Positions 12,264 to 12,395 of a stretch of DNA of 48,693 bases are shown here, one piece after another. A program made the position numbers and the translations under genes. The notes under the pieces are model-generated. The model was given only the letters and a program-made list of their open reading frames with translations, was not told the DNA's origin and ran no database searches. Positions within the stretch are counted from its first letter, which is position 1. Each line of letters starts with the position of its first letter. The stretch is from Candidatus Bipolaricaulota bacterium (GTDB taxonomy: Bacteria > Bipolaricaulota > Bipolaricaulia > Bipolaricaulales > Bipolaricaulaceae), in assembly GCA_014361055.1 (NCBI GenBank), contig JACIWI010000133.1, positions 1-48,693 on the forward strand. Direction: 5' to 3'.

Positions 12264-12395
12264 TCCTGGAACGTGATCCGTAATCCGTGACCCGTGATCC
12301 GTGATCCGTGATCGGTGATCCGTGACCCGTGGCCTCGGAACGGGGGTACCCAAACGGCGGAATACGGTTTACGGATAACGGATCACGGTTTACGC
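12264..12395. repeat. tandem heptamer array (about 9 x CCGTGAT/TCCGTGA) followed by about 5 inverted copies (TNACGGA); potential long slipped hairpin between korC-like stop and hdrA start
   Basis: Direct reading of 12264..12330 gives cgtgatc cgtaatc cgtgacc cgtgatc cgtgatc cgtgatc ggtgatc cgtgacc cgtggcc. Positions 12352..12390 read atacggt ttacgga taacgga tcacggt ttacgct, the reverse complement of the same unit. Confidence 0.65.

Follow-up and report, generated by a model that had tools for sequence, protein, structure and literature searches.

Inverted heptanucleotide arrays at two gene junctions of an hdrA-mvhDGA operon, most likely translated into N-terminal tails

The DNA analysed here, called the window throughout, is a complete contig of 48693 nt from a metagenome-assembled genome which its HdrA homologues place in Candidatus Acetothermia/Bipolaricaulota. 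Its minus strand carries an operon made up, in order, of a POR-gamma-like (korC-like) gene, hdrA, mvhD (FlpD), mvhG (Oxidored_q6) and mvhA (NiFeSe_Hases), the divergent neighbours being plus-strand ROK and sugar ABC transporter genes. The POR-gamma-like gene (12982..12383, minus strand) was recognised with Pfam PF01558 (E = 1.5e-32). The hdrA open reading frame (ORF), 698 aa plus stop at 10303..12399 on the same strand, was recognised by its homologues, its domains and a structure alignment, and the contig encodes the corresponding NCBI protein MBC7093812.1 (698 aa, HdrA). The subject of this report is two pairs of inverted heptanucleotide arrays, which sit at two intercistronic junctions of the operon, POR-gamma/hdrA and mvhD/mvhG, and not in a leader. 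An original prediction, made from the letters of the window alone, had noticed the first pair and part of the second, and had taken the repeats for a non-coding leader or attenuator of hdrA.

At the POR-gamma/hdrA junction, Tandem Repeats Finder (TRF) delimited an array at 12272..12331 with a period of 7, 8.6 copies, 86% matches and the plus-strand consensus CGTGATC, which bears out the nine or so direct copies first counted. Its inverted partner, five degenerate units at 12358..12394, was also found as described. Read in the sense (minus-strand) direction, the element consists of a 5' arm (12358..12394; CGTAAAC CGTGATC CGTTATC CGTAAAC CGTATTC CG, translated SVNRDPLSVNRIP), a 26-nt spacer or loop (12332..12357) that is not conserved among relatives, and a 3' arm of 8.6 ACGGATC-type units (12272..12331; ACGGATC / GGATCAC, translated ...TGHGSPITDHGSRVTDYGSR). 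Between the segments 12358..12394 and 12286..12322, complementarity is 78% over 37 nt and rises to 84% over 31 nt; they can pair in several shifted registers, so that the predicted hairpin potential was real. A two-unit probe allowing at most 2 mismatches gave 9 matches at the hdrA locus and 2 elsewhere in the 48.7-kb window; 0.49 were expected by chance over the whole window, and the observed total of 11 was reached in none of 100 shuffles. Beyond the two arrays, both in the hdrA-mvhDGA operon, no further copy was found in the 48.7 kb.

The start of hdrA was placed by comparison with other loci, taken from contigs of relatives and of other genomes and designated by L-numbers (L001, L204 and so on). 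In the repeat-free relatives L128, L129, L130 and L206, AAGGAG is followed, after 7 nt, by ATG or GTG and then by CCG GAA ATT AGG CCC CGC ATC GG; hdrA thus starts 11-14 nt before the POR-gamma stop, with an overlap of 8-14 nt, and its start codon precedes the I codon of RIGVFVCHCG by 21 nt. The window matches this canonical layout: a Shine-Dalgarno AAGGA (12408..12412, minus strand), located inside the POR-gamma codons V-K-E, lies 8 nt before ATG 12399 (12397..12399), and both arms are downstream of this ATG and in frame with it. ATG 12399 is the positional homologue of the canonical start overlapping the upstream gene end, MBC7093812.1 begins with it, and it is the most likely start of hdrA; a second in-frame ATG (12405..12403) lies only 2 nt past the Shine-Dalgarno. 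The TGA stop of the POR-gamma-like gene (12383..12385) falls in the second unit of the 5' arm, giving a 17-nt overlap with the hdrA ORF. The repeat-encoded sequence ends just upstream of the ATC codon of I46 (12262..12264), where the conserved HdrA core RIGVFVCHCG begins. An hdrA start (ATG or GTG) overlapping the upstream stop, by 8-23 nt, was found at 15 of 17 loci.

The distance from this start to the I codon is 21 nt at four loci and 36, 48, 51, 78, 90, 96, 96, 105, 129, 135 and 135 nt at the others, or 141 nt if it is counted from the first ATG of the window, and every one of these values is divisible by three. As originally seen, the longest hdrA ORF reads through both arms. Over eight array-bearing loci, no in-frame stop was scored, versus a total of 28 in the two alternative frames, where the upstream gene's own stop accounts for 8. 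A perfect array of the 5'-arm unit would place TGA in all three frames; in every lineage (including L001, L002, L003, L204, L205 and L125) the unit concerned reads TTA, CAG, CAT or TCA where TGA would be in frame, and 5'-arm units in the other phases retain TGA or TAA. In the 5' arm of the window, the sole unit with a potentially in-frame TGA reads TTA. The 3'-arm unit contains no stop and no canonical start codon in any frame, and tails homologous to the 3'-arm product occur in relatives.

The length of the arrays is polymorphic. Alleles of 670, 677 and 684 aa were found in one 90%-identity cluster and differ by steps of one or two ITDHGSR-type blocks, each block corresponding to exactly three heptamers (21 nt, 7 aa). 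At 97% HdrA identity, the window has 5+9 units and L001 has 3+7, and the spacer differs too. The suggestion of a variable-number site was therefore a good one, close strains differing by whole units. Hidden frameshift alleles were looked for and dismissed: the ORFs behind the database calls P0122 and P0145 proved long and intact, so that the apparent truncation is an artefact of gene calling.

The original prediction had declared the annotated start wrong and proposed that translation begins at GTG 12258, behind an AGGA taken for a Shine-Dalgarno. This GTG is the only canonical in-frame start downstream of the arrays in the window. It encodes V48, and a start there would remove R45-G47. Of 40 homologues, 90-100% share R45, G47 and F49, residues that make up the first beta-strand in the predicted model and correspond to residues 4-6 in the solved HdrA structure 5ODC. 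The AGGA, 5 nt upstream of the GTG, is itself part of the conserved HdrA codons S-R-I-G. In L002, L267 and L125, no alternative in-frame start codon is present. Given the conserved upstream start, the open frame, the lengths in multiples of three, the 21-nt allele steps and the conserved residues before V48, we conclude that the arrays are most likely translated, and that the deposited 698-aa annotation with ATG 12399 is most likely right.

Public annotations of the hdrA start are inconsistent (L001:3001, L207:416, L206:1501, L268:1501, L269:1501) despite the open long ORF. The annotated start is an ATG upstream of the arrays, an ATC inside the array, the ATC of I46 or the GTG of V48, or lies 20 codons downstream.

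The resulting HdrA tail of about 45 residues, MSVNRDPLSVNRIPPFGYPRSEATGHGSPITDHGSRVTDYGSRS, directly precedes RIGVFVCHCG. Its residues 1-41 were modelled without secondary structure, at a predicted local distance difference test (pLDDT) score of 31-36, and the repeat-encoded tail is predicted to be disordered. It is absent from solved HdrA structures, 5ODC aligning only from query residue 46. Predicted tryptic peptides of the tail are DPLSVNR, IPPFGYPR, SEATGHGSPITDHGSR and VTDYGSR.

A sister element lies at the mvhD/mvhG junction. A second array had indeed been predicted there and is real (GTGATGG x 3.6 with TRF), but it is located at 9791..9815 and not at 9781..9806, and its inverted partner at 9873..9893 had been missed. 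On the minus strand, the 5' arm (9873..9893; GGGTGAT GGGCGAT GACTGAA) contains both the mvhD stop TGA (9890..9888) and a candidate mvhG start ATG (9881..9879), and the 3' arm (9791..9818; TTGTCAC CCGTCAC CCATCAC CCATCAC) is read in frame as LSPVTHHPS at the MvhG N-terminus. The MvhG tail region is TSDLSPVTHHPSLK; NCBI starts the MvhG of the window at ATG 9860. In the canonical relatives L130 and L206, mvhD and mvhG are joined by an ATGA overlap (GGGGATGAAGCTC, giving MKLAVYW). In the window, L001, L204, L205 and L267, a GGTGATG-type 5' arm contains the mvhD stop, with the start in its last unit or in the spacer, and a CCATCAC 3' arm is read as PSPITHH-type sequence ahead of KLAVYW. Compared with the empty ATGA site, the mvhG element has a TGA at both ends. 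As with HdrA, MvhG homologues are a mix of canonical and extended N-termini. The mvhD/mvhG pairs of relatives are much larger, with up to 9 units (L204:2555-2692, L205:2975-3072 and the L267 junction), and the element folds with z = -3.2 in the window, -6.3 in L204 and -7.0 in L205.

At hdrA, the 139-nt sense-strand element folded at -58.1 kcal/mol; dinucleotide shuffles gave -45.0 +/- 4.1 (z = -3.2), none of the 200 being as stable. A 181-nt fold with longer flanks gave a weak z of -1.9, and it is only in this fold that the Shine-Dalgarno and the AUG are paired, at the stem base. The stem begins 6 nt after the hdrA AUG of the window and includes the upstream stop. Among relatives, the hdrA hairpin was significant where the arrays are intact (z = -5.3 for L002, -2.9 for L267 and -2.8 for L204, as for the window) and insignificant in L001 (-1.5, with a 97% identical HdrA), L003 (+1.1), L205 (-1.3), L269 (+0.2) and L125 (-1.9). 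The antisense RNA folded as well as the sense RNA or better in 12 of 13 elements, and no sense-strand G-U signature was observed. Because antisense folds equal or beat sense folds, the symmetry of the arms is at the DNA level, with no sign of selection on the mRNA strand. In the L205/L267/L269 lineage, the 5' arm carries GTGACGC and the 3' arm GCGTCAC, that is, two complementary changes relative to GTGATCC/GGATCAC, which indicates that the arms co-evolve between lineages. Nothing adjoining either array was found in a scan for intrinsic terminators, whose single match in the scanned stretch was at 10290..10276, at the hdrA/mvhD boundary. A search of the whole window against Rfam at gathering thresholds returned only RNase P, and no family at the arrays.

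On balance, we think that these elements are probably inverted heptanucleotide microsatellite pairs, generated by slippage and template switching, tolerated in translated N-terminal tails and selected for frame, any effect on expression being a by-product. A quasi-palindrome would have grown inside the formerly short, overlapping stop/start junction of the POR-gamma-like gene and hdrA. Ribosomes would start at ATG 12399, upstream of the arms, and translate the arrays into a disordered tail, and the sister element would behave likewise at mvhD/mvhG. Units would be gained or lost through replication slippage, and template switching within the palindrome would keep the two arms alike. The arrays would persist thanks to the tolerance of HdrA and MvhG for a longer N-terminus, selection acting mainly to keep the frame open and not to preserve a given structure. 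Because the stem starts 6 nt past the AUG and contains the upstream stop, it may hinder independent initiation and, as a by-product, make HdrA synthesis more dependent on ribosomes finishing the upstream gene. We favour an origin at the DNA level because no mRNA-strand signature was seen, and because template switching between inverted repeats homogenises their arms without selection (PMC8604942, PMC7202029).

Several observations weigh against this account. Several species whose HdrA identity is only 79-85% have inverted arrays at these same two junctions, and the arrays may be maintained rather than merely tolerated; judged on the available sequences, conservation fits as well as neutral decay with independent re-birth. 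Neither the enrichment of an ATCAC core across phyla nor a 16:2 orientation bias (see below) is explained by simple slippage. Translation from the canonical start is, moreover, not absolute, as two exceptions show. In L204 (45-135), a leader ORF of 35 codons runs from the canonical GTG through the 5' arm and ends at a TGA in the spacer; this TGA overlaps a new in-frame hdrA ATG (ATGCGTACTGA), and translation of the 3' arm is retained. The junction gives the impression of having been frameshifted and then rescued through termination and re-initiation, and it means that the 5' arm can fall out of the hdrA frame. L207 has no canonical hdrA start codon at all. Start-codon usage within the clade thus appears only partly understood.

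It is possible, if doubtful, that the arrays were instead selected as an RNA hairpin, either masking the region past the hdrA (or mvhG) start and thereby imposing strict coupling and fixed subunit ratios, or protecting or processing the mRNA in the manner of repetitive extragenic palindromic (REP) sequences. Both junctions were ancestrally overlapping stop/start sites, the upstream stop is always in the 5' arm with the stem 3-16 nt past the start codon, and z ranges from -2.8 to -7.0 in six elements; the covariation of the arms between lineages and the pairing of Shine-Dalgarno and AUG at the stem base of the 181-nt fold would also be expected of such a structure. Close relatives that keep the operon have nevertheless lost the hairpin or fold insignificantly (L001, -1.5 at 97% HdrA identity; L003, +1.1; L269, +0.2), and repeat-free relatives make do with a plain overlap. 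The sense strand has no advantage in G-U pairs, and both a terminator and a U-tract are absent. We regard as improbable a phase-variable contingency locus, in which a change of one or two units would shift the frame and switch HdrA, and by polarity the hydrogenase, off in a subpopulation. A repeat unit that is not a multiple of 3, placed in the 5' part of the ORF between the start codon and the HdrA core, and with a copy number unstable among close strains, is what such a locus would look like. However, the frame is kept in every allele (670, 677 and 684 aa) and at every locus, as judged from consensus assemblies, which would hide minority OFF alleles; the apparent truncated calls are intact long ORFs; and HdrA is an enzyme of core energy metabolism rather than a protein of the cell surface or of host interaction.

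A function of the tails themselves is a still weaker contender, and we hold it to be very unlikely that these His/Ser/Thr/Asp-rich sequences (GSRITDH in HdrA, PSPITHH in MvhG) were selected for metal handling, assembly or Hdr-Mvh docking. Both tails are histidine-rich and appear to be translated, and similar tails recur on both subunits in several lineages. Yet the periodicity is of 7 nt and not of 21 nt, so that it is the nucleotide sequence that defines the repeat; the peptide varies freely (SRVTRHG, PSPVTRH, ITDHGSR), is absent from most relatives and is predicted to be disordered. We give hardly any credence to the non-coding leader, attenuator or REP-like repeats of the original prediction, with an hdrA start at GTG 12258. 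Apart from being the only downstream canonical in-frame start, with AGGA 5 nt before it, this codon or a nearby ATC is where some database calls begin. Its use would cost R45-G47 and their part of the first beta-strand, L002, L267 and L125 do not have this GTG, and the conserved upstream start codon carries a Shine-Dalgarno; the frame, the phase of the stops and the 21-nt alleles all indicate translation. As a leader, attenuator or riboswitch, the element would have its start codon on the wrong side, upstream of the arrays, and it has no Rfam match or terminator next to either array; as a REP-like element, it amounts to just two arrays in 48.7 kb, both in one operon.

The microsatellite origin can be set against the wider distribution of the unit, for which similar arrays elsewhere had been anticipated. 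An exact 18-mer of the unit was found in at least 120 stretches in GTDB genomes, including Streptomyces, Gemmatimonadota, Planctomycetota, Chloroflexota, Verrucomicrobiota, Desulfobacterota (Desulfacinum hydrothermale DSM 13146), ANME-1 and another Bipolaricaulota genome assembled from metagenomes. Many of the GGATCAC arrays are inverted pairs placed exactly between a stop and the next start codon (L011:4833-4920, L029:5660-5799, L043:5910-6001); L009:2458-2604 and L052:537-704 are further examples of arrays in other phyla. Among the matches listed, solitary arrays numbered 114 and paired arrays 18, the order (GTGATCC)n...(GGATCAC)m outnumbered the opposite one by 16:2 (p = 0.0013), and upstream ORFs ended about 20 times at offset +1, corresponding to the TGA of the first unit, versus 5 times at +8 and 9 times at +15. 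A long ORF ended in the array in 48 of 136 cases, against 4.5% of random windows; with stops in all three frames of the unit, most of this is trivial, and only the first-unit excess is noteworthy. The flanks of 118 arrays from other phyla, examined crudely and with a signal from third-codon-position GC (GC3) that was often weak, were heterogeneous and followed no general rule: no clear downstream ORF was seen in 67, the frame stayed open through the array in 25, and the array lay ahead of the first start codon in 17 and inside an ORF in 8. In viral contigs, 33 GGATCAC and 29 CCATCAC arrays were scored versus 9, 16, 8 and 13 for four composition-matched controls, an excess of no more than 2.5- to 3-fold. 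Arrays of other heptamers were common as well, 8 unrelated ones being counted in about 450 kb of unselected loci.

Arrays of this kind were also seen inside genes and next to other heptamers. At L046:1895-1922 (Candidatus Bipolaricaulota isolate AUK007), GGATCAC x 4, flanked by other heptamers, is in frame within a pheT-like ORF, where the array adds about 25 residues (…QVESPKSQDPSPLTHHGSRITDHGSR…) between conserved segments. In other phyla (L021:7380-7480 on the reverse strand, L054 and L073), different heptamers abut each other: CGCTCCA-CGATTCA-CGGATCA, CGAATTA-GGATCAC and GAGTGAT-GGATTAC. It looks as if units mutate and a new unit then spreads along the array.

The 3'-arm unit, as GGAUCAC, has the same letters as the universally conserved 3' tail of 16S rRNA just 5' of the anti-Shine-Dalgarno (GGAUCACCUCC), and GUGAUCC and GGUGAUG, the units of the 5' arms, act on paper as extended Shine-Dalgarno complements, with GUG or AUG starts and a UGA stop included. 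Arrays with the ATCAC core might conceivably form a cross-phylum family with a biology of its own, as opposed to chance products of slippage; it would be either a ribosome-interacting stop/restart module or a small mobile, TGA-targeting hairpin, inserting itself at gene junctions and creating N-terminal tails, an idea that we consider a long shot. The 16:2 order, the viral excess, the ORF ends at the first-unit TGA and the TGA flanks of the mvhG element speak for it, while most arrays are solitary, and the L205/L267/L269 lineage keeps the pairing of its arms but, with GTGACGC, loses the 16S complementarity. Mimicry of 16S or Shine-Dalgarno sequences as a conserved principle is likewise weakened by this GTGACGC/GCGTCAC lineage.

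Some further features of the operon and of the window were recorded. The POR/KOR gamma-like gene (PF01558) stands alone, without neighbouring alpha or beta genes, and is always first in the hdrA-mvhDGA operon (12383..12982 in the window, and L001, L003, L206 and L266-L270); it is translationally overlapped with hdrA throughout the clade. This arrangement suggests that its product is an uncharacterised partner of the Hdr-Mvh complex. Elsewhere in the window, a full-length RNase P RNA of bacterial class A (RF00010, 242 bits) was found at 36822..37159 on the minus strand, and a 21-nt unit, CCATGCGCCTGACTTATACCA, is perfectly duplicated in direct orientation at 33489..33531 (x 2.0, 100% match, TRF score 86).

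Databases disagree on the starts of hdrA and mvhG in this clade; comparison between loci settles on a start upstream of the arrays. The locus offers a natural example of a heptanucleotide microsatellite in essential ORFs, confined to three-unit steps and making new disordered tails; two subunits of the electron-bifurcating Hdr-Mvh complex carry them, in an uncultured lineage of acetogens. Why heptamer repeats are abundant in bacteria is an old open question, for which the recurrence of the unit, its orientation bias and its link with stops and starts give a testable hypothesis. As read from sequence comparison, the value of these arrays would lie mainly in the correction of annotations and in a test case for the origin and persistence of heptamer repeats, rather than in a new regulatory system, and we claim no function for them.

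Among known systems, clustered regularly interspaced short palindromic repeats (CRISPR) were set aside, as they had been from the outset, since contiguous 7-nt units without spacers differ from the required repeats of 23-50 nt with unique spacers of similar length. Closer in appearance are REP sequences and bacterial interspersed mosaic elements (BIME; also REP doublets forming hairpins, REPIN) of Enterobacteria, which are imperfect palindromes between operon genes, with possible mRNA stem-loops near the upstream stop. Hairpins of the REP type can stabilise the mRNA upstream of them and, where they lie very near a stop codon, interfere with termination. A REP has a fixed length of about 35 nt, occurs outside genes in hundreds of copies and is moved by REP-associated tyrosine transposases (RAYT). 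The element described here, in contrast, is built of 7-nt tandem units in arms of variable length and was seen twice in 48.7 kb, and no RAYT gene came to light, though none was sought; the extragenic position is also lacking, both arms being inside the hdrA ORF downstream of a conserved start. With phase-variable simple sequence repeat (SSR) loci, such as the tetranucleotide repeats in Haemophilus ORFs or the 7-bp repeats in hmw promoters (PMC2651432), it shares a slippage-prone unit that is not a multiple of three, a position at the 5' end of a gene and a polymorphic copy number. It differs from them by its imperfect arrays in inverted pairs, by its location in a housekeeping energy gene and by the fact that no out-of-frame allele was seen. 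Template-switch mutagenesis at quasi-palindromes, known to create new coding sequence (PMC7202029, PMC8604942), would account for inverted arms that stay complementary while their sequence changes. It is however a mutational process and not an element, it is undescribed for tandem heptamer arrays, and we infer its action here.

The heptameric SSRs of bacteria, a class of long SSR, resemble the arrays most in the features tested here. STRR heptamers of Calothrix are one example of them. Others are GGGAATC in Xanthomonas and GGGGAYT in Nostoc (Rehm et al. 2015, PMC4692102) and TAACTGA in Beggiatoaceae, cyanobacteria and Bacteroidetes (MacGregor 2015, PMC4679880); the over-representation of heptamer SSRs is credited to Mrazek et al. 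2007 (in PMC4679880). They are slippage-prone and differ in length from one close species to another; inverted pairs and copies in ORFs are occasional, and no function is established for them (PMC4692102, PMC4679880). No published description of the units CGTGATC/GGATCAC and GTGATGG/CCATCAC was found in the literature searched, and a 2025 census paper on short tandem repeats leaves heptamers unmentioned. Like the known examples, the arrays consist of head-to-tail 7-nt units, from a few to about 15 copies, at or near gene boundaries; the locus is fixed while length and sequence vary strongly, inverted pairs can form stem-loops, some copies are inside ORFs, one unit occurs in distant phyla, and polymerase slippage is the proposed origin. 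Having at least three head-to-tail copies beyond chance, a variable length at a fixed locus and a unit found at many unrelated loci and genomes, the element belongs, by these features, to the heptameric SSR class. Within it, the arrays differ in that their unit does not form G-quadruplexes, and in that they lie inside the 5' end of two essential ORFs, past a conserved start codon, in frame and in three-unit steps, where they replace an overlapping stop/start junction. What is new here is thus the unit itself, its in-frame arrays past the conserved start in two genes of one operon, the three-unit steps, and the hints, across phyla, of a preferred orientation and of a link with stop codons.

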